DNA from: Clostridia bacterium
GTDB lineage: Bacteria > Bacillota > Clostridia > TANB77 > CAG-465
NCBI GenBank assembly: GCA_045538335.1
Contig: JAZSRF010000045.1
Coordinates: forward strand, 5,708-69,707
DNA length: 64,000 nucleotides
Reading direction: 5' to 3'
Notes under the pieces: generated by a model
The model's database searches: none
What the model saw: only the letters and a program-made list of their open reading frames with translations
What the model was told of the DNA's origin: nothing
Translations under genes and position numbers: made by a program
Shown here: in pieces, positions 4,360 through 42,094 of the stretch
Layout of the letters: each line of letters opens with the position of its first letter
Numbering within the stretch: the stretch's first letter is position 1

Positions 4360-4423
4360 TATGATTCCTCCTATTATTTTATTTTACAGTCGCATTATAT
4401 CACAAAAATATGGATTAGACAAG

Positions 4424-5197
4424 CTAGTCTAACCCATAAAATTCTATTGCATTTTTATATAAAATATTCGCCACTTCATTCTTATCCATCTCTTTTATTT
4501 CAGCAATTTTTTCTATAACATATGCTATATTTAACGACTCATTTCTTTCTCCTCTATGTGGTACAGGAGCAAGATAAGGCGCATCTGTTTCTGTCATAAT
4601 ATTTTCTATTGGCATTTCTTTTATAACTCTTATTGCTGTAGCTGTCCTTTTATATGTTATATTTCCTCCAACAGATATTCTGTATCCCTTTTCTATTATA
4701 TATCTTGCTGTTTGCTCATTTAAGTCAAAACAATGAAACATTATCTTTTCCGGCTTTTTGTCAGTGCTTTCTAGAACTTCTACTGTATCTATACTTGCAT
4801 CTCTTGAATGTATTTGAACAGGAAGGCCTACATCATAAGCAAATTCCAATTGGTCTTTAAAAAGTTTTTTCTGCTCCTCTTTAAACTCTTTTGTATAGTG
4901 ATAGTCCAGTCCAATTTCTCCAATTGCAACAATTTTGTCCTTAGAGTTTTCCCCATATAGCCTTCTTAAATCGTCTGCGTTTTCCCCATATTCCACATGT
5001 TCTGGGTGAATCCCTATTGTGCAATATACATTTGTATGATTATTTGCAATAGCCAATGCTCCCGTAGAAGATTCTATTCCAGCACCAGCATTTATTATAT
5101 AATCTACACCATTTGCGAATTGTCTATCTAACGTTTGTTCTCTATCCTCGTTATATCTTTCATCTTCATAATGCGCGTGTACATCAATTATTTTCAT
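4424..5197 (-). CDS. tatD: TatD-family metal-dependent DNase/hydrolase
   Basis: MKIIDVHAHY... N-terminus and conserved His/Asp/Glu pattern of TatD; 257 aa. Confidence 0.85.
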   Translation of the reverse strand: MKIIDVHAHYEDERYNEDREQTLDRQFANGVDYIINAGAGIESSTGALAIANNHTNVYCTIGIHPEHVEYGENADDLRRLYGENSKDKIVAIGEIGLDYHYTKEFKEEQKKLFKDQLEFAYDVGLPVQIHSRDASIDTVEVLESTDKKPEKIMFHCFDLNEQTARYIIEKGYRISVGGNITYKRTATAIRVIKEMPIENIMTETDAPYLAPVPHRGERNESLNIAYVIEKIAEIKEMDKNEVANILYKNAIEFYGLD

Positions 5198-5215: not shown

Positions 5216-6601
5216 CTATTTCATTATTGGAATTGTAACTATTACCTCTGTTCCAATTCCAACTTCACTCTTCATTTCAATAGTTCCATCGTGAGCTTCT
5301 ACTATTTCTTTAACTATAGAAAGTCCTAGACCTGTTCCACCCATTTGTCTTGAACGAGCTTTATCTACTCTATAGAACCTTTCAAATATACGTTTTAAGT
5401 CTTTTTCAGGTATTCCCATACCATTATCTACAAACTTAAGGTAAGCTTTACCACCAGCTGCTCCAATATATACAGTTATTTCTCCGCCTTCAGGTGTATA
5501 CTTTATGCTATTGCTAAGAATGTTTATCATAACCTGTTGTATGCCGTCTTTATCCACAAATACAGGCCCCGGTATCATATTAACAACACATTTTAAATTG
5601 TGCTTTTTCTCCTGTGCTACATACTGCATATTTTCTACAACTTGTTTTGCCAAATCATCAATGTTAAGTTTAATCTTATTCCATACATTTTTCTTATAAT
5701 CAAAACGAGAAAGTTGTAAAAGGTCTGCTACTATTCTATCCATTCTATTTGCTTCATCGTTTATTACTTGAGCAAATTTAGCTATTTCTTCTTTTTCTAG
5801 TTCCCTATCTAATATTGTTTCAGAATATCCTTTAATTGAGCAAAGCGGTGTTTTTAATTCGTGAGAAACGTTAGCAACAAATTCTTTTCTCATATTATCT
5901 AGTTTTTCACTTTCTGTTATGTTTTTTATAAACACAATAACACCCATTGGCATTAATCTTTCGTTTTGGAAAGGGACTAGCACAACATCAAGAACGTTAT
6001 CATTTACAGTTGTTTTTTCTTCTACATTTTTGTAGTTTGTCATATAAAGAACTTTATCAAAATCCACTTTTAGCTTAAGTTTTTTCATAACTTTTTCATA
6101 TGTGTTATCTTCTGAGCTAAGGTTTGCAAAAGTCTTAGCTGCAGAGTTTATTTGTATTATTTGTCTTTGCATTGAGAAAGCTATAACTCCATCTGGCATT
6201 CTTTCTATTATCTTTCCTGTTTTGCTGTCTTGGCTTGTAACTTCAAAGTTGTTTTTAGAAATACTTTGCATTATTTCGCTATATATATCAATTACGCTAT
6301 TTAGTTCTTTAAGCTCTGTACAACCGTTTAGCATACGAGAATCTACAGTTTTTCCATCTTTTATGTTTTTCATAGATTTTTCTATACGTCTAAGCGGTAA
6401 TAATATCTTATTATTGTATATGGCAGCAAATATTAATGCACATAAAAGTAGCACACCAATTGATATTACAATCGGTGCGTCAAATACAAATCCAAATTCC
6501 TTTGTAATAGAATAATTTATAACAATATTCATTACTACAAATGTAACTATTACAAACCCTAACACTAATACCTTTGTACTAGTTTTTATAGATTTAAACA
6601 T
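5216..6601 (-). CDS. sensor histidine kinase (WalK/VicK-like; TM + PAS + HisKA + HATPase_c)
   Basis: H-box HELKTPL, followed by N/G1/G2 ATP-lid motifs (GTGLGLSIVKEIVEAH) and an N-terminal TM segment. Overlaps its response regulator by 8 nt. Confidence 0.8.
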   Translation of the reverse strand: MFKSIKTSTKVLVLGFVIVTFVVMNIVINYSITKEFGFVFDAPIVISIGVLLLCALIFAAIYNNKILLPLRRIEKSMKNIKDGKTVDSRMLNGCTELKELNSVIDIYSEIMQSISKNNFEVTSQDSKTGKIIERMPDGVIAFSMQRQIIQINSAAKTFANLSSEDNTYEKVMKKLKLKVDFDKVLYMTNYKNVEEKTTVNDNVLDVVLVPFQNERLMPMGVIVFIKNITESEKLDNMRKEFVANVSHELKTPLCSIKGYSETILDRELEKEEIAKFAQVINDEANRMDRIVADLLQLSRFDYKKNVWNKIKLNIDDLAKQVVENMQYVAQEKKHNLKCVVNMIPGPVFVDKDGIQQVMINILSNSIKYTPEGGEITVYIGAAGGKAYLKFVDNGMGIPEKDLKRIFERFYRVDKARSRQMGGTGLGLSIVKEIVEAHDGTIEMKSEVGIGTEVIVTIPIMK

Positions 6602-13962: not shown

Positions 13963-14011
13963 ATTTTAACCCCTTATATTTTATAATATTACTACAAATG
14001 CTATATATACA

Positions 14012-14108
14012 AAAATGTCGCCCACGGCACATAGTATCATTTGCTTATTGCTGCTTCCTTCCGGACCTGACAAGGTTCACAAACTCACTATTGCCAAAGC
14101 GACTTTAG
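14012..14108 (-). ncRNA. ffs: SRP RNA (small 4.5S/ffs type)
   Basis: The minus-strand transcript contains the domain IV motif GUCAGGUCCGGAAGGAAGCAGC (rc of 14051..14072). Terminal helix GTCGC.../...GCGAC. Sits in the canonical position upstream of dnaX. Confidence 0.65.
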
Positions 14109-32120: not shown

Positions 32121-32208
32121 CATTGCCTCTCAATTATACACAAGATTTAATTGTTTTTCAATATTTCATTGATTTTTTTGTTTTAGTAGTGTATAATAAT
32201 TCCCACAA

Positions 32209-32247
32209 GCACCAATAGCTCAACTGGATAGAGCGTCAGACTACGAA
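32209..32247 (+). other. 5' half (acceptor-5' strand, D-arm, anticodon 5' stem and loop) of a disrupted tRNA-Arg(ACG) gene; attL junction
   Basis: GCACCAATAGCTCAACTGGATAGAGCGTCAGACTACGAA is tRNA-like up to anticodon-loop position 38, then diverges. A TGTATAAT -10 lies just upstream. It pairs perfectly with the 3' half at 40498..40544. Confidence 0.7.
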
Positions 32248-32311
32248 CAGAACGCTCAAAACCTTATACCTATTGATAATGCTGTTTTTCAGGGTTTGGG
32301 AATTTTTCATT

Positions 32312-32328
32312 CCCCAGTTTTACCCCAA
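32312..32328. repeat. 17-bp direct repeat CCCCAGTTTTACCCCAA (left-arm copy; candidate Int arm-type site)
   Basis: Identical 17-mer recurs at 40309..40325 near the other end of the element. Each copy is next to a short palindrome (GGGAATttttcATTCCC / TTCCCAAAATTGGGGAA). Confidence 0.5.
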
Positions 32329-32353
32329 AAAACTAAAATACAATTTAACATAT

Positions 32354-32430
32354 GCGGCAGTAGCTCAATTGGATAGAGTAACGGACTACGAATCCGTCGG
32401 TTGGGGGTTCAAATCCCTTCTGCCGCACCA
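32354..32430 (+). tRNA. tRNA-Arg (anticodon ACG), intact, carried just inside the element
   Basis: Acceptor GCGGCAG/CTGCCGC, anticodon stem ACGGA/TCCGT with loop CTACGAA, T-loop GGTTCAAATCC, encoded CCA; 77 nt. Confidence 0.9.
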
Positions 32431-32465
32431 CTTTTACAGCTTTTAGTTTACAGAAGGCTGTATTT

Positions 32466-33747
32466 TTATCCCCAAATTTTATTAATTTCTTCTCTTTTTC
32501 TTGTTAATGTAACGTGTATATAATACTTCTTTGTTGTAGATGAGTCAGAGTGCCCCATTAGTTCTTTTAACACAACATCAGGCACACCTCTTTCACTGCA
32601 TAATGTTGCAAAACTATGCCTTAAACCATACAAGGTTACTTTCCCCAATTTGTACTTTTTAATAAATGTTGGTATTTTATTTGTTAATCTTTCAGATACA
32701 TAAGGTCCTCCGTTTTCATTTAGAAAAACATATTCTTCATCCGACCATTTTATATTATTCCTTTTTGCCTTTTCTTTTTTGCTTTCTTTTAACTTAATTA
32801 ACATTTTAAATAACCTTGGCGACATTGGTATAATTCTATAACTTTCTTTAGTTTTAAGACTGCTATCTGCTTTCTTATAGCCAATAGCATTAAAGTTCTC
32901 ATCAAATATTTGAATTTCTTTATATGCATTTTCTACACATATAGTCTCATCTTTAAAATTTACACATTTCCATTTTAAGCCACAACCGTTCTTCTGGTCT
33001 CATACCAGTTTGAATTATGGTAGCAAAGAGCAGCGCCCAATCTCTACCATCTTGTTCGGCACAATCTAACCACTTTACTTGTTCTTCAGATGTTAAATAA
33101 CTAATCTCTTTTCTTCTCTTGGGTGGTAACACAATATCTACAATAGGGTTAATACTAATTAAATTTTGCTGTCTTGCAAAGTCCATTATTTGTTTCATTG
33201 TAATGTAATTATCTCTTGCCATTTTAGGTGCATTTCTATTATCTATGTAATTTTGAAACATCTCTTTTGTAATTTCATTTATTAAGTATTCTCCAAATGC
33301 AGGTATTAAATTAGACTTAACATTGTATACATATTGTTCAAAAGTTTTACTGCTTAATCTTTTTGCTCTGTTAGGCATTGTTTCTTGTCTTCTTTTTTCC
33401 AGCCAATTAAAAGCAACCTTATTAAACTTATTACACTCTTTTGCTTTAGAAATAATTTCTTGTGTAACATCCTCATTGTTATATTCTTTTAGTTTTCTCA
33501 AACTTTTAGAACATGTCCTATTTGTTTCTTCTTCATTTAACCCTTTGCCTTGTGATGCCCTAATGTATGCCTCAGCTATTGCTTCACCAAGTTTTCTTTT
33601 TGCCTCCTTTTCTGAAACAGAACTAAACCTAGATAATCTATAGTTTTTTATACCATCAATATCTAAAGTTATTCTTGCTTCATAACCATTATTTCTTTTT
33701 CTAACGCTTATAGTGCCCTTTTTAGCCCTTTCTTTTATTTTCTTCAT
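32466..33747 (-). pseudogene. int: tyrosine site-specific integrase, disrupted by a frameshift near 32950..32990
   Basis: The N-terminal ORF (32953..33747) ends inside box I (...TGMRPEERLW). The C-terminal ORF (32466..32825) carries LRHSFATL...HSD...Y catalytic residues in a different frame (lower coordinate mod 3 = 0 vs 1). The alternative frame reads through as ...GLKWKCVNFKDET.... Confidence 0.7.
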
Positions 33748-33844
33748 ACAATTCCCTCCTAATATAAAGAAAATGTTTAAATTAGCGTTTAGAAAGGTAA
33801 ATCATAGTTATTATAACATCTCTTTATATGTAAAGTCTAATCTT

Positions 33845-34033
33845 TTAATAATAATATTTGCCGTAATTTTCGTGAATCCACTTTTCAAGATCTTGCTTAT
33901 TAATAATTACTTTTCGCTTAAATCTTATACAAGGGAATCCATCAACTTTAATTAGTTCTAGCATTAAGTTTCTTCCAATGCCCAACATCTTTCTTGCTTC
34001 CTCAATGCTAATACATACCTTTTCGTCTTGCAT
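33845..34033 (-). CDS. xis: excisionase/AlpA-like small HTH DNA-binding protein
   Basis: 62 aa from ATG 34033 (RBS AAGGAGG): MQDEKVCISIEEARKMLGIGRNLMLELIKVDGFP. Directly upstream of int. Confidence 0.5.
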   Translation of the reverse strand: MQDEKVCISIEEARKMLGIGRNLMLELIKVDGFPCIRFKRKVIINKQDLEKWIHENYGKYYY

Positions 34034-34140
34034 ACTATACCTCCTTCTTCTTAAATTGAAAGGATTTGTTATATAAATAATCTGTCCACTTAATATAACT
34101 AAAAATAACAAATGTAAAATTTAAAATTATATATTTTTTA

Positions 34141-34540
34141 CTTTGCTTATTACTTGCCCCTTCACTTACTATATATCCTTCAAACACTAAAAATCGGACA
34201 AGATTTATAAAAATAGCGACTTTTTACAAAATTTCACATAATCTTCTTTGTTTTTAGTATTAATTTTTATATTCTCTCATTACTTAACAGTCCTCCAAAC
34301 ATATAAATAATTAGAAGATTTACAAAAATAACACAATTTTCTTTATTTGTTATAATTAGTTTTATCCCCTTTCACTTCCCTATCGATTGAAACAGTGAAA
34401 GTCGGACAAAATATTAAAAATTTATTTAATTTTTTATAAATTAGATTATTTACCCCTTCACTTATATAAACAGTTGAAACACCAAAAATCTGACAAAATT
34501 TATAAAAACCGTGCTTTTTCACACAATTTCACACAAAAAT
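34141..34540. repeat. iteron-like imperfect direct repeats (CCCCTTCACTTA ... AAAAATC(G/T)GACAA(G/A)ATTTATAAAAA ... ATTTCACA) x ~2.5 in AT-rich non-coding DNA
   Basis: Copy 1 is 34156..34238; a partial copy with the hairpin CTTTCACT..AGTGAAAG is 34365..34420; copy 3 is 34455..34534. The two ~50-bp units are ~80% identical. Confidence 0.5.
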
Positions 34541-35244
34541 ACCCTTATAATTGGAAATATCAATGTAATAAAAAAGCAGTATTAAAACCACTCAAACAAA
34601 ACAAATAACTTTTGATATCTGTTTTATACATTAACTTTTGTTCATTAAATAAGAAGAAGTACTTTATTAAGTATATCAACTTTCACTTAAAATAAAGAAA
34701 AGCTTTAAAAAGGGAACATATAATATAATTAATTTAGTTTATGATGCAATACTAGATAACTTGACCTTTCCTAATGGCAAAAACCAAAGTGTTTATTCTC
34801 TACGAACCATGAAGCTGACAATAGTTATCCATAAGAAATAAAAATGTATAAATTTGAATATTACTTAAATTGTAAACTCAAAGATCAATTTCCTAAAGTT
34901 ACAGCTAACAAAAGAGTTAATTTTTAAAAAGTTCTAAAAGTTTAAAGATAAAGCAAAAAATCTATTATCAAAACAAAACTATCATATAAGAAGCAAACGA
35001 CACCAAGAGGTAAAGTATTCTTTTGCGCAAGCAAAATTGAATAAAGAAATTAAAAATCTTACTAAGATAACTTAAAACCAGATACATAATGGTACATTAT
35101 TTGTATGCATTTGACACCGAGATATGTTTAATAGTATGATAACCACACTATCTATAGTATAACTGAAAATGAGAAATCAAGCAATATTGTTTAAAAATTT
35201 GGGCGCCCTAAAATTATTTTAGGGTGCCCTCTTTGTTTTGAGAC

Positions 35245-35418
35245 CTATTCAAGTGCAAAACTAGCAAAATACATATCCTTGCCCGTGCAACGCTGTCTGC
35301 ACTTGGAAGTGCTCAATACACGAAACTTCTTTCCTTGCGTCTTTGCATCATTACGTTGAGCTTTGATATAAGCCCTACGCTCTTTAGGAGAATCAAACCA
35401 CGTTGACCAATTTTTCAT
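35245..35418 (-). CDS. small hypothetical protein (57 aa) with its own RBS and terminator
   Basis: GGAGGTG RBS; MKNWSTWFDSPKERRAYIKAQRND...; downstream hairpin GGGCGCCCTAAAAT/ATTTTAGGGTGCCC at 35204..35232. Confidence 0.3.
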   Translation of the reverse strand: MKNWSTWFDSPKERRAYIKAQRNDAKTQGKKFRVLSTSKCRQRCTGKDMYFASFALE

Positions 35419-35445
35419 TAGTGCACCTCCAATATGAGTCTTCTT

Positions 35446-35661
35446 CTACAATTCAAAAAATTCTTTTCGTTCTTCCGCAGTTATATTAAAAAGTCCCCCG
35501 TGTCCATCTTTAACTTCCCAGACCCCATCTTCGCAAGAACCTGATTTCCCAGGGAACTTATCCTTGACGCCGAGAATTGTTCCAGATGTAATCTGAACAC
35601 CCGTCTTTGTAACATAATCTTTATTGCATTTTATTTGCCATAAATTTCTGCAACAAGTCAT
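35446..35661 (-). CDS. small Cys-rich hypothetical protein (71 aa from ATG 35661)
   Basis: RBS AAGGAGG + ATG giving MTCCRNLWQIKCNKDY...SGSCEDGVWEV. The longer ORF call lacks an RBS. Confidence 0.35.
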   Translation of the reverse strand: MTCCRNLWQIKCNKDYVTKTGVQITSGTILGVKDKFPGKSGSCEDGVWEVKDGHGGLFNITAEERKEFFEL

Positions 35662-36180
35662 ATTTTTAATCCTCCTTATAATTTGTTGATGTTTATTCGA
35701 CAAGGTACTACTGCTATACAATACAGTGCCTCCTTAAAGTCGTACAAAACCTAAATGCTTTTATTATTTCATTATAGTAAAATGAAATTCAATTAAACTG
35801 ACACCTATATTATAACATATATTTTATGTAAAGTCAAATAAGAATACGCCGAGACATTTTCTACTTATTATGTTAATATTTCCAAATCACAGTCGAGCAA
35901 CTGTATATATTAGTATAGTATCACTAACTATCAGTACTATATATAAGGTCAATAATAAATGCTATATTTTAATGCAACTTATTTGTTTTTTCATTAGATT
36001 AATTTTTAAACCCGTTATTTCTTAATTTATTTATACCTAATACAGGAATAGATGCAAGACACATCGGCTCACATCTTAGAGGCACAGCCACTAAACTTGT
36101 ATTACAATTTCAATTTTGTATTACATTTGTAATACGATAACCAAGTTGGTCATTTTAAGTAGAATGCTACATATAAGCAA

Positions 36181-36232
36181 AACTACAGTATCTCTTGTTT
36201 AAGAGTAACTGTAGTTTTATTTTATTTATCCA
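36181..36232. terminator. hairpin AAAACTACAGT...ACTGTAGTTTT with T-rich flank at 3' end of the defence operon
   Basis: 11-bp inverted repeat overlapping the stop of the RloB-like gene. Confidence 0.4.
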
Positions 36233-36908
36233 TCATTTCTTCTAATAACAATCCCACATTAGAGCCCAATTCAGTCTTTAAATATTTAACATCTTCACAA
36301 AAAGACTTTTCATTTTCTATTGCTGTTCTAATATTAGCTTTAAATTTTTTGAAATCAATATTTCTTTTATTACAACCAAATATTTGATTTAACTTAACCT
36401 CTAAAAACCTTCTGTTATTGCTTATTTTTTCATTATTTAACATATCCTCTTTGCTTATGTTAAAAACTTCTTTACTATGCAATACAAGAAAAAATTCAAA
36501 AGTAGGATTTGTTACAAAAGGGAAATATCCACATCTACTAACACCCTCTAAAAACTCATCATATTGATTGTCTTTAAAATTTTGTGGATCCCTATCGACT
36601 ATAAAACATACCTTGTCTATTTCTTTACTGTACACAAATTTATCTTCATCTAAAGATTTATTAAAGTTTTCTAATTTTTTAAGCGGATGGCTTTGTCCAT
36701 ATTCGCTTTCTTCATTTTCTACCGGAACAATCTCTATCAAATCTTTTATTCCTATTTCTTCCGAATTTTCTTTTACACCTTGAAAGTATTGTAATTCTGT
36801 TTTATCTCCTTCAGAAACAATAAAATATTTAGACTTAGGTTCTTTACTTCCTTTTCTTCTTTCTAGGTTTAATCCATTTTCACTAATTATTCTCATCTGA
36901 TAAATCAC
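36222..36908 (-). CDS. RloB-like (AbiLii-type, Toprim/OLD-related) defence protein
   Basis: Toprim-like signatures YFIVSEGDKTELQYF and FIVDRDPQ. Overlaps the preceding ATPase gene by 26 nt (operon). Confidence 0.6.
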   Translation of the reverse strand: MIYQMRIISENGLNLERRKGSKEPKSKYFIVSEGDKTELQYFQGVKENSEEIGIKDLIEIVPVENEESEYGQSHPLKKLENFNKSLDEDKFVYSKEIDKVCFIVDRDPQNFKDNQYDEFLEGVSRCGYFPFVTNPTFEFFLVLHSKEVFNISKEDMLNNEKISNNRRFLEVKLNQIFGCNKRNIDFKKFKANIRTAIENEKSFCEDVKYLKTELGSNVGLLLEEMMDK

Positions 36909-38283
36909 CTACCGGAAATACAGTTTCAAAAATTGGTACTCCACCATAACGGCCTTCTAAATATGCTTTATCAATCTTTTTATCAAATCTCTCATTATAA
37001 TCTTCTAAAGAATATAACTCTGTTTGACCATATTTTTGTCTATTTGCAAACCAAACCTCATCTCTCCTTAATAAGTCAAAATCTAAAAGCCTAGATTCAT
37101 GTGTAGTAACTATTAATTGTGTATTCTTATCTTCAGAGTTAGCTAAAAATCTTTTTACAAATTCAAACGTTAATTGTGGATGCAAACATCTATCTACTTC
37201 ATCTATTAAATAAACTTTCTCTTTATTTTTATTCATCAAAATTTCAATTAGATCGAATAATCTTTGTGTACCATCGGATTCCTCAGAAAATAAATATTCA
37301 CTTTCATTATTTTTATGCTTTAATACTATCTTTTGAACTTGAATACCAGCTAATTCTGCTTTTCTCAAGATATACATTTCCTTATTTATTCTAATATTTG
37401 CTTGTTGAACAATTATTTTGTTGTATTTCTTCAAATTATCCATAAAAGCTTTTTCTATAGTATCAATCATATTCTTTAGAATATCTGGTGGTATGTTGTC
37501 TTTTAATTCTTGCAAACTTGATTTTACAACTTTACATTTGCTGATTCCCGTTCCAAATGTAGAAATTATATCATTTATTTTTTCAATATTTTCTTCTGTA
37601 GAAAAATACGGTGTATTATCTAAACCTACTTGTGGAAAAATGATAGTTAAAGTATTATTAAACCAATTAAATAAATCTCTAAAAATACATACATTATTAT
37701 CTGGAAATTCTTTATACATTGTATCTTTGTTTTTATTCATAATGGTTAAAAATAATATATTATCTTGGCTCTTCATATCTGAATAATAAACGTTATTTCT
37801 ATTTATTATATCTTGGACATCATTAAAATATTAACTGTTTAATTCTATATTTTCATTTAGTTTTCTTGTATAAATAAGTATTTCCTTATTTTTATTTTTA
37901 TCCAACTCATATAGCCATTCTGCACGAATACTATTTTCTGATAATAGCATATCAAATCCATAAGCATAATATTTATCATTAATTTTTATTTCATATTCAA
38001 ATGAAGATATCTTATCCTTATTTGAATTGTTGATTCTGCAATATAGACTTGTGACATTAAATGCTACTCCTCTTAAAATAATGTTTTTCCCAAAATTAAT
38101 TGCTTTTAATAAATTAGATTTTCCGGATGCATTAGCCCCATATACCGCTGAAAATTTTAGTAATTTTAGTTTTTCATCGCTTACTAAGTGCGCTGCTTTA
38201 TTTTTTACAGCACCCGCTATCATAGAGAATTCTTGTTCTTCATTAAAAGATAAAAAATTTGAAACTTTAAATCTTATTAACAT
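36883..38283 (-). pseudogene. ABC-type AAA_21/AAA_15 ATPase (AbiLi/AriA-like) interrupted by a single in-frame TAA (37831..37833)
   Basis: N-terminal part has Walker A FSAVYGANASGKSNLLKAI. C-terminal part has ABC signature ESDGTQRLF, Walker B VYLIDEVDRCLHP and H-loop VTTHE. Both ORFs share one frame. The 18 codons between stop and next ATG have no further stops. Confidence 0.7.
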
Positions 38284-38491
38284 ATTCTTCCTCTCCTTTT
38301 ATATTATTTTATGTGATAAAATCGTTTTTGTCAATAATGTTTTATGTAATTTAGAGCAATTTTATGAATTTGTAGGTGATTTTTTCACTTTAGCGTTGTT
38401 TTATTAACTATTTTGTATTTACACAATATTTTTATAGCATTGATTTTAATTATATCTGTTGATATAATTAATTTGTACAGGAGGTGTACTT

Positions 38492-38902
38492 ATGATTTTA
38501 TTAAGTGAAATAATCGCTGGGTTAGAAACAGTTAGTGATATCACTGATGTTTACTACAATCCCGAAACAGAAGAAACATTTTTATCTGATATCGGAGATT
38601 TTGAGGATTTAGATGAAGATGAATTAGATGAACTTTTTGAAAAATCTATAATGTTGCCTACAAGATATGATATAAACGAATATGGAATGATGGAAGAATT
38701 TATAGAAACCAAAAACAACAATACTCTTTTATATAATCAACTATGCATTGCAATTAATGGTCCTGGTGCATTTAGAAGATTCAAGGATACTTGTATTAAC
38801 TTTGATATTATTGACGAATGGTGCAAATTTAGAGATGCTAAATATAGAGAACTTGCGATAGAATGGTGTAACGAACACAATATCAAATATAAGGAGGACT
38901 AG
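38492..38902 (+). CDS. hypothetical acidic protein (element cargo)
   Basis: 136 aa with RBS AGGAGGTG, run of acidic residues (DFEDLDEDELDELFE) and motif GPGAFRRFKD. Confidence 0.45.
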   Translation: MILLSEIIAGLETVSDITDVYYNPETEETFLSDIGDFEDLDEDELDELFEKSIMLPTRYDINEYGMMEEFIETKNNNTLLYNQLCIAINGPGAFRRFKDTCINFDIIDEWCKFRDAKYRELAIEWCNEHNIKYKED

Positions 38903-38904
38903 CC

Positions 38905-39633
38905 ATGTTAAAAGCAAAATTAACAGACAATTTAGCAGGACTTACTATTAGTGGTGATCACGAAGATTTAGACAAGCTTTACGATGCTATAAATTATTTA
39001 ATTAAAGGCGAACCCAATAGTATACAAGAATATACTATGCAAAACCATTTGTATGGCTTTTTATATGATGTAAGACACGCTTATCAAGGTGATAGAGAGA
39101 TAGAATTAATAGATAACTGGGTTAGCGAAGACGTAAGAAAATGGCATGGCTTTAAAAAAGCTGAGATTACAGATAAAAACGCATATTTTAGTTTTAACTA
39201 CCCTTTACCAGATATGTTACTAGATATGGTCTTAATTCAACACTTTATCAGAAAAGTACATAAGAAAGAAAATGACATTTACAATCCATACATAAACATT
39301 GTAAATTTATTTTATAGTATTGCATTAGATCCGTTATATCAAGTACTAACACCAAACAAATTTAATACTATAAAGAACGGCCTATTGGAATCAGTTGTTC
39401 CAGTAAAATCTTTCTGTCCACAATGGTTTCAAATGATAACTTGTGATTATTTAAAATGGCCTAAAGAAAAACGATTGAAAAATCTGCCTAAGATAGCAGA
39501 TGAAATATATAATTTTATGGAATATGAGGATTATGTTAAAATAAAAATAGATATGGATAAATATTGTAAAGAAAACAATTGTACACTAGATGATGTTACT
39601 ATGGGCGAATATCCAACCGAAATAATTTGGTAA
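38905..39633 (+). CDS. hypothetical protein (element cargo), translationally coupled to 38492..38902
   Basis: 242 aa, RBS AAGGAGG, start 2 nt after upstream stop. Confidence 0.45.
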   Translation: MLKAKLTDNLAGLTISGDHEDLDKLYDAINYLIKGEPNSIQEYTMQNHLYGFLYDVRHAYQGDREIELIDNWVSEDVRKWHGFKKAEITDKNAYFSFNYPLPDMLLDMVLIQHFIRKVHKKENDIYNPYINIVNLFYSIALDPLYQVLTPNKFNTIKNGLLESVVPVKSFCPQWFQMITCDYLKWPKEKRLKNLPKIADEIYNFMEYEDYVKIKIDMDKYCKENNCTLDDVTMGEYPTEIIW

Positions 39634-39664
39634 ACAAAAACAATATTCTGTCTAGTATTTTTTA

Positions 39665-39715
39665 GAGAAATCTGGAGTTGCACTCCAAATTTCTCTAAAT
39701 TTTTGTTTTTTTCTT
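39665..39715 (+). terminator. Rho-independent terminator (TTTAGAGAAAT-CTGGAGTTGCACTCCA-AATTTCTCTAAA + T-tract)
   Basis: Nested inverted repeats followed by TTTTTGTTTTTTTC after the 242-aa gene. Confidence 0.55.
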
Positions 39716-39784
39716 TATATGCATTTTTGTTAATATAATAACTTGTAATAATAATTTTATAGTATTTAATTTATATTATTATAT

Positions 39785-39873
39785 TCTACAATTTTGTATA
39801 TACCTTCTCTACATTTTTGTATAGTACCTATAGTCATTTTTGATAATACCCTCTCTACAAAATTGTAGAGAAG
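39785..39873. repeat. three copies of CTACA(A/T)TTTTGTA(T/G)A; third copy is a 16-bp palindrome TCTACAAAATTGTAGA
   Basis: Copies at 39785..39800, 39808..39824 and 39855..39870, immediately 3' of the HTH_36 replication-like gene. Confidence 0.45.
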
Positions 39874-39890
39874 TTGCCATTTAATCCCCT

Positions 39891-40244
39891 TTAGTACCCT
39901 GCATCTATATAATCATTATAATCTAATTCATAGTCTATATTTTTCTTACGAGTGAGCCTACTGTTATCTAGTAAGTATATCTTTCTTTTTGAATCCTCAC
40001 TATTTTTTACTATCTCTACTTCTAGATATCCCTCCTTAACAAGTTTGCTTATCCATCTAGATATTGTGTTTGGATCACAATTATATAATCTTGCGAAATA
40101 TTTGTTTCCTGCAAAACAATATCCCTTTTTATTTGTTAATGCTGTTATTTCACCATATAACAATTTTTGTCCATTATTTAGATTTTCATCATATCTTACC
40201 TTTGCAGGTATTATTGCATAGTAACTTGGTTTTATTTTTTCCAT
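39891..40244 (-). CDS. HTH_36 / phage replisome-organiser N-terminal-domain-like DNA-binding protein (candidate replication initiator)
   Basis: YYAIIPAKVRYDENLNNGQKLLYGEITALTNKKGYCFAGNKYFARLYNCDPNTISRWISKLVKEGYLEVE matches the winged-helix pattern of DnaD-like/replisome-organiser N-terminal domains. Confidence 0.5.
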   Translation of the reverse strand: MEKIKPSYYAIIPAKVRYDENLNNGQKLLYGEITALTNKKGYCFAGNKYFARLYNCDPNTISRWISKLVKEGYLEVEIVKNSEDSKRKIYLLDNSRLTRKKNIDYELDYNDYIDAGY

Positions 40245-40308
40245 ATATTTTTACCTTTGATTTACCTTTCCCAAAATTGGGGAATAAAATTTATTTGCTT
40301 ATACTATA

Positions 40309-40325
40309 CCCCAGTTTTACCCCAA
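40309..40325. repeat. 17-bp direct repeat CCCCAGTTTTACCCCAA (right-arm copy)
   Basis: Identical to 32312..32328. Confidence 0.5.
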
Positions 40326-40497
40326 TTTTTGTAATTTTTCTTAAACTAATTTAAACTTTTTCGTATTTTTTTAAATTAAAATAAATTTTTGTTTTATCAA
40401 AGGTAATAAGATTTTTTGCAGTATTTTCAACACTTGTAACGTTTTTTCTTGATTTTTCTAGTGCTTAATGATATACTCATTTTGACTATTGGTGTAC

Positions 40498-40544
40498 GAC
40501 TACGAATCTGAAGGTTGGGGGTTCGAGTCCCTTTTGGTGCACCA
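40498..40544 (+). other. 3' half (anticodon loop through CCA) of the disrupted tRNA-Arg(ACG) gene; attR junction
   Basis: GACTACGAATCTGAAGGTTGGGGGTTCGAGTCCCTTTTGGTGCACCA. The acceptor 3' strand TTGGTGC is the exact complement of GCACCAA at 32209. There is no local 5' partner. Confidence 0.7.
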
Positions 40545-40615: not shown

Positions 40616-41627
40616 TGTGAAGAAAATTATATATCTTTTTAAAAGAATATGTGAAATGGATTTCAAATCTATGTTTAAAACAGCAAGGCGTGTTGGAAAA
40701 GCTAATAAGGCATCATCTATTATAGTTTTGTTTGATATAATTCGTTGCGGAATAAAATATATGGCAGGGTATGTAGATTACGAAGTTTTTGGATTTTACA
40801 ACCTAACCAAAGAGCAAAGAGAAACAATTATAACAAGAGGCATTAATAATCGTTTTGTTGCAACACTAAACGACAAAGAATTAGCAAACACTTTAGATAA
40901 CAAGTTACTATTTAACAAAAGATTTAATGAGTTATTAAAAAGAGACTGGCTTAATTTAAAAGAAACTTCAAAAGAAGAATTTGCAAAGTTTCTTAAAGAC
41001 AAAACAAATATAATTGTTAAACCAGTAGACCAGGCATGCGGAAGAAACGTTGAGAAAATAAGCGTTAAAGAAATTAATGATATTAACAATTTATATGACA
41101 ACCTAATATCTAAAAAACAATATTTGGTAGAAGATTGCATTGTGCAACATCCTAAAATGTCTGAAATATATCCTAACGCAGTTAATACCCTAAGAATAGT
41201 TACTGTTACTAAAAACAATAAAGTTAACATTATGTTTAGAAGCATTCGCATGGGCAATTCAGGTAATGTTGTAGACAATTTCAATCACGGCGGATTATTT
41301 ACAACAATAGAAGAAAATGGAGTTATTCAAAAACCAGCTGTAGACAAACTTGGTAATATCTATGATAGTCATCCATTTACAAATACACCGCTTATAGGAT
41401 ATGAAATCCCTTTATTTAAACAAGCAATCGAATTCGTAAAAACAATGGCAATTTCCATACCAGAAGTTGGATACGTCGGTTGGGATATCGCTATTACAGA
41501 AAACGGGCCTGTTGTTGTAGAAGCAAATCCATTCCCAGGCCACGATATATATCAATCAAAAATACACATGAAGGCAGACGGAACAGGACTTAGAAAAGAT
41601 TTTGAAAAAATAATATATGAAGACTAG
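40616..41627 (+). CDS. ATP-grasp family protein (sugar-transfer-associated ATP-grasp type)
   Basis: ATP-grasp fold signatures (IIVKPVDQACGRNVEKI, EVGYVGWDIAITENGPVVVEANPFPG). Likely GTG start at 40616 after RBS AGGGGG. Confidence 0.55.
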
Positions 41628-42094
41628 CTCTTGCTAGTCTTCTTTTTTTTCCTTAATTCCTTAAAGAATTCTTTTATTAATGTTTCACAATCCTCTTTAC
41701 AGATTCCTTGTTCAAATTCTACTTTGTGATTAGATTTTATCCCAAAGGCATTAACTACACTTGTTACTGTTCCATATTTTTCATCACACGCTCCGAAATA
41801 CACTTTTCTAATCCTCGATTGTACTATCGCACCAGAACACATCAGACATGGCTCAACCGTCACATATAAATCACAATTTTCAAGTCTAAAATTATTTAAC
41901 TTTTTACACGCCTTATCTATAGCAATTATTTCAGCATGTTTCAAACTGTTTTGTTTGCTTTCACGCAAATTATATCCTCTAGATATAATCTTTCCACCCT
42001 TTACTATTACAGCACCTATAGGCACTTCGTCTTTTTTCCTTGCCTTTATAGCCTCTTTTATAGCCTCTTTCATAAACTTTTCTTGTTCATTCAT
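41624..42094 (-). CDS. tadA: tRNA-specific adenosine(34) deaminase
   Basis: CMP/dCMP deaminase zinc motifs HAEIIAI and PCLMCSGAI; 156 aa. Confidence 0.85.
   Translation of the reverse strand: MNEQEKFMKEAIKEAIKARKKDEVPIGAVIVKGGKIISRGYNLRESKQNSLKHAEIIAIDKACKKLNNFRLENCDLYVTVEPCLMCSGAIVQSRIRKVYFGACDEKYGTVTSVVNAFGIKSNHKVEFEQGICKEDCETLIKEFFKELRKKKKTSKS

Follow-up and report, generated by a model that had tools for sequence, protein, structure and literature searches.

What becomes of a tRNA gene when a mobile element integrates into the middle of it and does not restore it? This question is raised by a 64,000-nt stretch of DNA from a Clostridia bacterium (GCA_045538335.1, contig JAZSRF010000045.1, 5,708-69,707), called the window in the following, in which a gene for tRNA-Arg(ACG) is found in two halves on either side of an inserted element. 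All coordinates are window positions, and L numbers refer to related genomes and loci. The answer reached here is that a small integrative island, from a family of gut Clostridia, has very probably split the gene and carries a replacement tRNA with it. An initial annotation of the window had recognised the disruption, which is real, but had overlooked a complete tRNA-Arg(ACG) inside the element; with this, the gene is replaced and not lost. The features around the split gene are as follows:

32169..32197, + strand: promoter of the host tRNA, TTGATT-17-TATAAT, a 10/12 match, with the same arrangement at the empty sites
32209..32247, + strand: orphan 5′ half of the host tRNA-Arg(ACG), the host side of the left junction (attL); it matches nt 1-39 of the uninterrupted L011 gene throughout
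32241..32247, + strand: crossover core CTACGAA at attL, the 7-nt anticodon loop and the sole sequence common to the junctions of the family
32248..32353, + strand: spacer of 106 nt from the core to the element tRNA, forming the left end (P′ arm) of the element
32354..32430, + strand: complete element tRNA-Arg(ACG), allele b, found by ARAGORN and Rfam (68 bits), 107 nt inside the left junction
32435..32462, + strand: terminator-like hairpin with a T-run behind the element tRNA, shared with the convergent integrase gene (int)
40498..40544, + strand: orphan 3′ half of the host tRNA-Arg(ACG), the host side of the right junction (attR); identical to nt 31-77 of the L011 gene

The 5′ half (GCACCAATAGCTCAACTGGATAGAGCGTCAGACTACGAA) comprises the 5′ strand of the acceptor stem, the D arm, the 5′ strand of the anticodon stem and the whole anticodon loop, and the 3′ half (GACTACGAATCTGAAGGTTGGGGGTTCGAGTCCCTTTTGGTGCACCA) runs from the anticodon loop to the CCA end, with the core at 40500..40506. 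Both halves are present with the sequences that the initial annotation had given. The identity between attL and attR reaches 9 nt (32239..32247); this 9-mer, GACTACGAA, occurs three times in the window against 0.17 times expected, a number reached in 0/100 shuffles, and the third occurrence sits in the intact tRNA at 32354..32430. When the halves are joined, ARAGORN folds the resulting 77-mer into a canonical tRNA-Arg(ACG) with perfect acceptor, D and anticodon stems, as had been proposed. Straight read-through of either junction gives no tRNA in ARAGORN, which agrees with the earlier view that the gene was left unreconstituted, and the DNA beyond the core at attL (CAGAACGCTCAAAACC...) is not tRNA-like. 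The -10 element that had been noted ahead of the orphan 5′ half is part of the promoter-like TTGATT-17-TATAAT and ends 11 nt before that half; this promoter now faces the orphan 5′ half, the spacer and the element tRNA. By ARAGORN and Rfam, only two intact tRNAs exist in the window, a tRNA-Arg(CCT) and the tRNA-Arg(ACG) at 32354..32430.

The initial annotation had called for a comparison with related genomes, holding that a failed tRNA fold or the lack of an uninterrupted relative would speak against an insertion. The halves fold, as described above, and uninterrupted relatives exist. Empty sites were reached through orthologues of the ATP-grasp gene that adjoins the 3′ half, using the synteny Gate-Gate-HTH_3-tRNA-Arg(CCT) ... 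ATP-grasp-TadA-amidase-YlbF. In two genomes (L010, GCA_045611765.1; L011, GCA_054278095.1) the order is Gate-Gate-HTH_3-tRNA-Arg(CCT)-tRNA-Arg(ACG)-ATP-grasp-TadA-amidase-YlbF, matching the window, with only ~480 nt between HTH_3 and ATP-grasp. The uninterrupted tRNA-Arg(ACG) is identical to the joined halves at 77/77 positions in L011 and at 76/77 in L010, and the empty-site gene scores 68.9 bits against Rfam RF00005 (gathering score 29). Removal of 32248..40506 in silico makes the window colinear with the empty sites across the junction. The allele that occupies the empty sites is that of the two halves (allele a), not that of the element tRNA (allele b). When a genome collection was scanned for the 39 nt of the 5′ half, only two further occupied sites came up and none that was empty, and an exact look-up of TadA gave no match. 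A Logan contig with a 94% identical ATP-grasp gene (L012) begins exactly at ...TGAAGG of the 3′ half, an assembly break at the core that fits a branch point in the assembly graph caused by mixed occupied and empty sites or by repeated tRNA sequence.

The left boundary of the element is given by a second host in which the same element occupies the same site (L002 and L009, GCA_045604405.1). Compared with L002 in 100-nt bins, the window is 63-84% (~77%) identical in the host flank and 97-99% identical from 32250 inward, a step that coincides with the junction 32247/32248. This places the left boundary at the core, so that the spacer and the intact tRNA are element DNA. As the element is 97-99% identical between hosts with flanks at ~77%, it must be much younger than the split of the hosts, which implies horizontal movement, presumably by transfer of the island between cells. 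The empty sites and the identity step together bear out the earlier claim that an integrated element of ~8.25 kb splits the tRNA-Arg(ACG) gene in its anticodon loop.

Six copies of the element are known (the window, L002+L009, L008, L097, L098 and L099), all with a common left module of ~2.2 kb and a common right module of ~0.84 kb. Their cargo varies and may be AbiL, accompanied by an ABC/SMC-like gene or not, AbiD together with either a metallophosphatase/GrpB or an exonuclease, AAA_14/DUF4143, or others. Where both ends are visible the sizes range from 6,264 to 9,957 bp, and in L002+L009, L097, L098 and L099 the left and right ends of the element border on the tRNA halves seen in the window. 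In L099, the orphan 3′ half (allele a) is followed by the terminator of the family and ~100 nt of an integrase 3′ end (tRNA-sense ~6460..6600). This integrase remnant implies that the target tRNA in L099 was itself brought in by an older, now decayed element.

The tRNA carried by the element differs from the destroyed one at 14/77 positions. Allele b has the acceptor stem GCGGCAG/CTGCCGC and the anticodon stem ACGGA/TCCGT, and allele a of the host has GCACCAA/TTGGTGC and TCAGA/TCTGA; the differences in acceptor and anticodon stems are compensatory and the loop CTACGAA is the same. The element tRNA is 77/77 identical in all six copies, and the adjacent int differs at 10-20% of synonymous sites; strict conservation next to a diverging gene is a strong argument that the element tRNA functions. 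It lies between the core and the convergent int, in the same orientation as the destroyed host gene, and after integration it is found 145 nt downstream of the host tRNA promoter. The host gene thus appears to be destroyed and functionally replaced, and, by analogy with phages in which such a replacement is required (PMC10865867), the element tRNA would be needed for viability.

To see how general this architecture is, the integrase, repaired across the frame break described below, was used as a query; ~120 relatives were found and their contexts taken from NCBI, ENA and Logan contigs together with 80 metagenome loci. Among integrases at least 39% identical to the query, tRNA-Arg(ACG) almost always stands tail to tail with int. 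In 36 of the 45 loci, going outward from int, the intact element tRNA is followed after 105-156 nt by an orphan 5′ half that ends in CTACGAA and comes from a different tRNA-Arg(ACG). The other nine have no orphan half: the flank is shorter than 175 nt in five, two are canonical (L020, L073) and two show candidate attachment sites of the element (attP) as junctions (L004, L006). In the canonical members (L020 4441..4517; L073 737..813, − strand) the same element 3′ half directly continues a host 5′ half, which differs between the two loci, and the tRNA is regenerated at attL; the acceptor stem of L020 contains G-T wobbles. In L004 (4265..4675) and L006 (1844..2046, − strand), which are of the P0003 type, the element end is preceded by DNA that is not tRNA (…TTATCGAATGTTCA/ACTACGAA), a form present in 9 of the 13 contigs carrying the P0003 integrase. 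These junctions may be the attP of an excised circle, a reading that is unconfirmed, or a secondary site; the far side of the junction is absent from the available 10 kb of L003.

One type of element (post-core sequence CCAAGTATGCAA..., tRNA GCGGCTATAGTTTAAC...) abuts at least five different host 5′ halves. As CTACGAA is the only sequence in common to all junctions of the family, the integrase must exchange strands within the anticodon loop, which is kept invariant by the function of the tRNA. A complete second example with the same host synteny is provided by L007, with halves 10.2 kb apart, an intact integrase and other cargo. There, the pair of genes for tRNA-Arg(CCT) and tRNA-Arg(ACG) lies inverted between the HTH_3/Gate and TadA/amidase blocks, and its two members are separated by a gene for 711 amino acids (aa), a local rearrangement at an integration hot spot. 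Arrays of elements also occur: in L033, L035 (~4403..4900, − strand) and L023, the host 5′ half is followed by spacer A, the 5′ half of the tRNA of A, spacer B, the tRNA of B and int. This nested order shows that newcomers insert into the tRNA of their predecessor. A sister clade with integrases 33-35% identical (L041-L058) is found at tRNA-Lys(CTT). Its members (e.g. L042 4585..4858, − strand) have a degenerate relic of a 3′ half behind the core, with a mispaired anticodon stem and no CCA, and a full tRNA-Lys(CTT) ~120 nt beyond the relic, which makes the clade a plausible intermediate between a canonical and a tRNA-replacing attP.

The island measures 8,259 bp from core to core. Its remaining features, followed by features of the host DNA in the window, are:

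32298 and 32309..32328: left candidate arm-type integrase (Int) sites in the spacer, an inverted GGGAA and a 20-nt repeat, respectively
32466..33747, − strand: tyrosine integrase in two frames (Pfam PF14659/PF22022/PF00589; alignment to full-length relatives)
33845..34033, − strand: Xis/AlpA-like HTH_17 protein of 62 aa (Pfam PF12728; PHROG excisionase), within a longer open reading frame (ORF) of 88 aa that extends to 34111
34112..36221, no strand: ORF-poor segment of 2.1 kb, the start of which carries ~90-nt direct repeats
36222..36908, − strand: AbiLii (RloB-like), defence cargo (Pfam RloB 6e-25; PADLOC AbiLii 6e-17)
36883..38283, − strand: AbiLi (AAA_21/AAA_15 ATPase), defence cargo (PADLOC AbiLi 4e-47 and 2e-31, in two pieces)
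38492..38902 and 38905..39633, + strand: cargo pair UPF0158 and DUF6904 (Pfam), also paired in L098
39891..40244, − strand: HTH_36 winged helix-turn-helix protein of 117 aa (Pfam PF13730 7e-15; PHROG replication initiation 2.5e-25)
40265..40288 and 40306..40325, + strand: P arm with candidate arm-type Int sites, an inverted TTCCC/GGGGAA and a 20-nt repeat, respectively
40449..40477, + strand: outward promoter-like site TTGATT-17-TATACT, TG-extended, at the right end of the element
40489..40497, + strand: TTGGTGTAC, right-end block next to the core and candidate core-type Int site, kept in the window, L009, L098 and L099
32047..32121, − strand: host tRNA-Arg(CCT), divergent neighbour of the target in the left flank, outside the element (ARAGORN; Rfam 53 bits), in the same position in L010 and L011
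40618..41627, + strand, and 41624..42094, − strand: ATP-grasp gene and tadA of the right host flank (Pfam), with orthologues beside the intact tRNA at the empty sites
14011..14106, − strand: bacterial small signal recognition particle RNA, a housekeeping gene (Rfam RF00169, 66 bits)

The xis-like gene of 62 aa is called at the same position in all copies, and the HTH_36 protein, which resembles the N-terminal domain of phage and plasmid replication initiators, is kept with the right module in L009, L098 and L099. The direct repeats in the ORF-poor segment (34149..34241 and 34445..34536) are ~90 nt long, 78-90% identical and 295 nt apart; they could be iterons or regulatory. No match to this segment was found in Pfam, PHROG or plasmids, and its part 34597..36024 is unique to the window copy, an 870-aa ABC/SMC-like gene being present there in L098. 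A 20-nt direct repeat flanks the reconstructed attP on both sides (ATTCCCCAGTTTTACCCCAA at 32309..32328, ATACCCCAGTTTTACCCCAA at 40306..40325). In L007, the integrase of which is ~50% identical, TTCCCCA motifs stand equally far from the core, and they are also present in the tRNA-Lys clade. Repeats and inverted motifs together have the layout expected of arm-type sites and are candidates for binding by Int. The TTGATT of the outward promoter lies at the same distance from the core in L007. A 9-mer left of the right core, CTATTGGTG, is the reverse complement of the 5′ end of the tRNA; this match is coincidental, because other copies read GCTTGGTG or TTATTGGTG and only TTGGTGTAC is kept. Among the ORFs of the element, Pfam and PHROGs returned no virion, packaging or lysis genes and no terS, capsid, primase or helicase, and Pfam returned no relaxase, coupling-protein or type IV secretion system (T4SS) domains, an oriT being beyond recognition by these tools. 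The best phage match of the integrase is 26.5% identical, and IMG/VR contains only four matches, all distant.

From these features a model of integration can be proposed, in which a tyrosine integrase would recombine attP with the chromosomal tRNA-Arg(ACG) by strand exchange within the 7-nt anticodon loop CTACGAA. The junction of attP, reconstructed as ...TTGGTGTAC-GACTACGAA-CAGAACGCTC..., would share just the core of 7-9 bp with the chromosomal target (attB) and would bring no tRNA 3′ half. An attP of this kind implies that the host gene would stay behind as two orphan halves, for which the island would compensate through its own complete tRNA-Arg(ACG), 107 nt inside attL. In the window, transcription of the element tRNA would most likely start at the captured host promoter and read through into it, with the usual 5′ processing to follow. 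The outward promoter at 40449..40477 would in the circular form read across attP toward the element tRNA and in the integrated form into the orphan 3′ half and the ATP-grasp gene. The backbone of the island would consist of Xis, the replication-initiator-like winged helix-turn-helix protein and arm-type Int sites on both sides of the core, with anti-phage defence as an exchangeable cargo, namely AbiLi/AbiLii here and AbiD in a sister copy.

The integrase itself presents a further problem, as its gene is interrupted by a change of frame within the part encoding the catalytic domain:

33747..32989, − strand: 0 frame of int, M1-E253, ending in TGMRPEE and running on to a stop at 32953, 11 codons later
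32987..32469, − strand: +1 frame of int, from G254 to the end (GCGLKWK...), with the stop at 32466..32468

The break is due to one extra base, a C at 32988 within GAA-GAA-C-GGN (32985..32997, − strand). The window reads GAA-GAA-C-GGU at this site (stretch ACTGGTATGAGACCAGAAGAACGGTTGTGGC), with the trans-frame peptide ...TGMRPEE-GCGLK..., and the +1 frame encodes the catalytic Lys, Arg, His and Tyr; R250, K298, R376, H399 and Y409 are invariant in the alignment. Full-length relatives all read RPEE-GCG-LKWK in the alignment and lack the extra base. A repair as RPEE-RL-GLKW was rejected, since alignment to the relatives gives RPEE/GCGLKW and one extra C. The 0-frame codon at the break is CGG, the rarest Arg codon in the host ORFs of the window (3/13,036 codons).

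The extra C is present in 6/6 copies of the element, between which synonymous divergence is 0.10-0.20 in pairwise comparison. Among the six, the ratio of non-synonymous to synonymous substitution (dN/dS) lies at 0.05-0.19 ahead of the break; the DNA downstream of it gives 0.02-0.12 if read in the +1 frame and more than 1.7 if read in the 0 frame. This is illustrated by L097, in which TGT has changed to TGC right after the C, a change that is synonymous only in the +1 frame. In a collection of 15 billion proteins, the two ORF pieces are present (9 and 11 cluster members), and no full-length int was found there at 90% identity or above. The same C is found at the same position in 20/43 genes of the family; these belong to four lineages or more, and a neighbour-joining tree places unshifted lineages among them. 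Besides the window it is carried by L002, L008, L059-L061, L064-L071 and L097-L101. The closest pair of an unshifted and a shifted gene, L017 without and L059 with the C, is 90.7% identical in aa sequence, and the P0044 lineage (L100, L101) is shifted and its closest relative P0002 (68%) unshifted. Shifted lineages are down to 44% identical in aa sequence with one another, and both frames are open in every complete shifted gene. Conservation of the C across lineages together with selection in the +1 frame makes a pseudogene a poor account of this pattern.

The chances appear about even that the integrase of the island, and of at least three other lineages, would be made only by a conserved programmed +1 ribosomal frameshift at GAA-GAA-C-GGN. 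Separate translation of the C-terminal part was considered and rejected: there is no conserved start codon, and the first ATG in the window lies 54 codons downstream, past the catalytic Lys. Programmed +1 frameshifts at a slowly decoded codon are known from yeast Ty3 (GCG-AGU-U), bacterial prfB (CUU-UGA-C) and FseA of ICEMlSymR7A. The site in int resembles all three in having a single extra base to skip, here with the rare 0-frame codon CGG, a short 0-frame tail and a stop. The P-site GAA re-pairs poorly in the +1 frame, which is closer to Ty3 than to prfB. No Shine-Dalgarno-like stimulator was seen by eye upstream of the shift site. A programmed +1 frameshift fits the pattern best and would probably be of the Ty3 kind, with the scarce CGG occupying the A site and a Gly-tRNA reading GGN. 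As expected of a recoding site, homologues that have diverged widely retain the break, and purifying selection acts on either side of it in the frame used there. The extra C has come or gone repeatedly among close relatives, and it may act as a simple switch by which evolution sets integrase dosage and hence island stability. A frameshift could also tie the output of the recombinase to the arginine-tRNA pool, in an element which rewires the supply of arginine tRNA. To our knowledge, no tyrosine integrase has been reported to contain a programmed frameshift, and none came up in a text search of the literature.

How far the island remains active has to be weighed against the alternative that it is a decaying remnant, in which int would be a frameshifted pseudogene, the split gene a permanent scar and the tRNA kept only through host dependence. 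Applied to the other copies, the same view would explain them by vertical descent or by mobilisation in trans by intact relatives, which is conceivable as relatives share the core and similar arm motifs. Several observations favour decay or weigh against a working, tRNA-replacing island. A full-length integrase would be obtained only through a change of frame, so that this copy is possibly immobilised. AbiLi is broken by a single in-frame nonsense codon, K151* at 37831..37833 (− strand), the orthologue in L098 being intact (466 aa, 97.7% nucleotide identity, no indels). A further 2.1 kb is poor in ORFs, and a scan of IMG/VR, the one collection searched for the attP junction of this element, found no excised circle. 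In addition, a scan of the spacer at 32248..32353 detected no sigma-70-like promoter for the element tRNA; in relatives, strong promoters are found 11 nt upstream of the tRNA in L033 (TTGAAA-17-TATAAT, 11/12) and within the spacer in L007. Finally, the tRNA-Arg(ACG) genes of the host are in view over 64 kb only, so that an essential role of the split gene, and with it a need for the element tRNA, is presumed. With the nonsense codon and the frame change, an immobilised, decaying copy is possible in this genome. By contrast, 97-99% identity between hosts with flanks of ~77% means movement after the hosts had diverged. The extra C in all six copies with selection confined to the +1 frame, the same break in lineages 44-52% identical in protein with both frames intact, and the lack of an unshifted version at 90% identity or above in the protein collection are also difficult to reconcile with decay. 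A mere remnant, together with its extension to the other copies, is unlikely.

A different role for the element tRNA, as a cargo variant that resists anticodon nucleases or other tRNA-targeting defences or toxins, with the disruption of the host gene being incidental, is likewise given little weight. It would account for the 14/77 differences between the alleles, which include the anticodon stem, and for the company of abortive-infection genes on the island, and a role of phage tRNAs against defences that cleave tRNA has been proposed (discussed in PMC10865867). However, the anticodon loop, which is the usual target of such nucleases, is the same in both alleles (CTACGAA), the anticodon always matches the destroyed tRNA (Arg(ACG) here, Lys(CTT) in the sister clade), and the element tRNA always lies directly beside the crossover site, which fits complementation. 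Replacement and resistance are compatible with each other.

Least credible by far is classical reconstitution, in which 32354..32430 would be the regenerated target, the island would extend over ~32393-40497 and the half at 32209 would be an older scar: an intact tRNA that converges with int, together with a 3′ fragment of 83% similarity at the far end, is the classical signature (PMC4383910), canonical members exist in the same integrase family (L020, L073) and a standard finder of islands from a tRNA gene (tDNA) plus fragment would probably map the island in this way, but the 3′ half at 40498 has its perfectly pairing strands in the 5′ half at 32209 and not in GCGGCAG/ACGGA of the intact tRNA, the identity step at 32250 lies upstream of the spacer and the entire intact tRNA, the 5′ half of the intact tRNA is identical in six copies from different hosts, and the empty sites hold allele a and not b.

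If a tRNA-replacing island is accepted, tRNA-dependent integration extends from actinobacteriophages to small non-phage defence islands that are apparently common in gut Clostridia. Carriers that are not phages imply that this is a general strategy of mobile elements and not a peculiarity of phages. As the replacement tRNA in attP keeps the core, each resident element becomes a new landing site, which explains the stacked arrays. It also follows from L099 that the "own" tRNA-Arg(ACG) of a host can be of mobile-element origin. Tools that look for an intact tRNA plus a displaced fragment would probably overlook the orphan 5′ half and place attL ~145 nt inward of its true position. A cassette of attP, int and tRNA with a universally conserved 7-bp core could possibly serve as a broad-host integration tool for Clostridia, in which the tRNA must be included. 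The main points of interest are how broad the family is, that its members stack serially and that the integrase keeps a candidate recoding site. If the frameshift is real, no recoding site in a tyrosine integrase would have been reported before it, and such integrases would be candidates for a new class of recombinases under recoding control. The family to which they belong, of defence islands in gut Clostridia that replace the tRNA they split and insert into one another in series, would be both widespread and new to the literature.

Among known systems, the closest has already been named and is supported by experiment in phages: tRNA-dependent lysogeny, described for the actinobacteriophages Fionnbharth/K4, Cluster L, Gaia and Gordonia CQ2/DL (Guerrero-Bustamante & Hatfull, mBio 2024; PMC10865867). 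The island has in common with these phages a tyrosine integrase, here presumed to recombine with an attB that overlaps a host tRNA gene, a short core (9 nt in the window, 7 nt in the family), the absence of a tRNA spanning the junctions and an element tRNA with the same anticodon. In both systems close relatives reconstitute the same attB canonically, namely Boilgate and Ximenita there and L020 and L073 here. The requirement for the tRNA, and the lysogeny that depends on it, were shown experimentally in mycobacteriophages (PMC10865867), whereas here the requirement is inferred. Unlike in the phages, the carrier is an island of 6-10 kb without virion genes, found in Clostridia and not in Actinobacteria, and the target is tRNA-Arg(ACG). 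The replacement tRNA of the phages is encoded elsewhere in the genome with its own promoter, while that of the island is embedded in attP between the core and int. As it is co-oriented with the target, integration puts the island tRNA behind the host tRNA promoter. Serial insertion into the tRNA of the previous element sets the islands further apart from the actinobacteriophages. The island therefore works like tRNA-dependent lysogeny but is no prophage, the genes of a temperate phage being absent.

Two further phage systems are similar. The vTRX32-1-like phages of Rhizobium carry a full tRNA-Leu that lacks the 12-bp attachment motif, and their authors suggest that super-integration is thereby prevented (PMC8631192). 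Lactobacillus johnsonii prophage Lj965, which is cited in PMC10865867 and PMC3714127, is noted in the former as a possible case outside Actinobacteria. In both, as in the island, a complete element tRNA is presumed to replace the interrupted one, but these elements are full phages. Unlike in the Rhizobium phages, the core of the island is the anticodon loop, so that the replacement tRNA stays a target, and super-integration is seen in L033, L035 and L023. In comparison with phage satellites resembling phage-inducible chromosomal islands, just int, Xis and the 117-aa winged helix-turn-helix protein are present, and the relaxase and T4SS domains of an integrative conjugative or mobilisable element were not found. 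Text searches of the literature found no description of tRNA-replacing islands that are not phages.

Canonical tDNA islands remain as the last point of comparison. The initial annotation had taken insertion into the anticodon loop for a departure from classical integration; the crossover in the loop stands, but it is not unusual, as 2083/3919 islands in Islander have an anticodon-centred attP, which is the commonest sublocation for tRNA-targeting islands (PMC4383910). Like them, the island has int (32466..33747) at the tRNA end, an anticodon-loop crossover and a displaced 3′ fragment at the far end. The attP of a canonical island, however, carries the 3′ half and the target is regenerated at attL, as in L020 and L073, whereas in the window the target is not regenerated and an extra orphan 5′ half is left. 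Canonical, intermediate and replacing states coexist in one integrase family.

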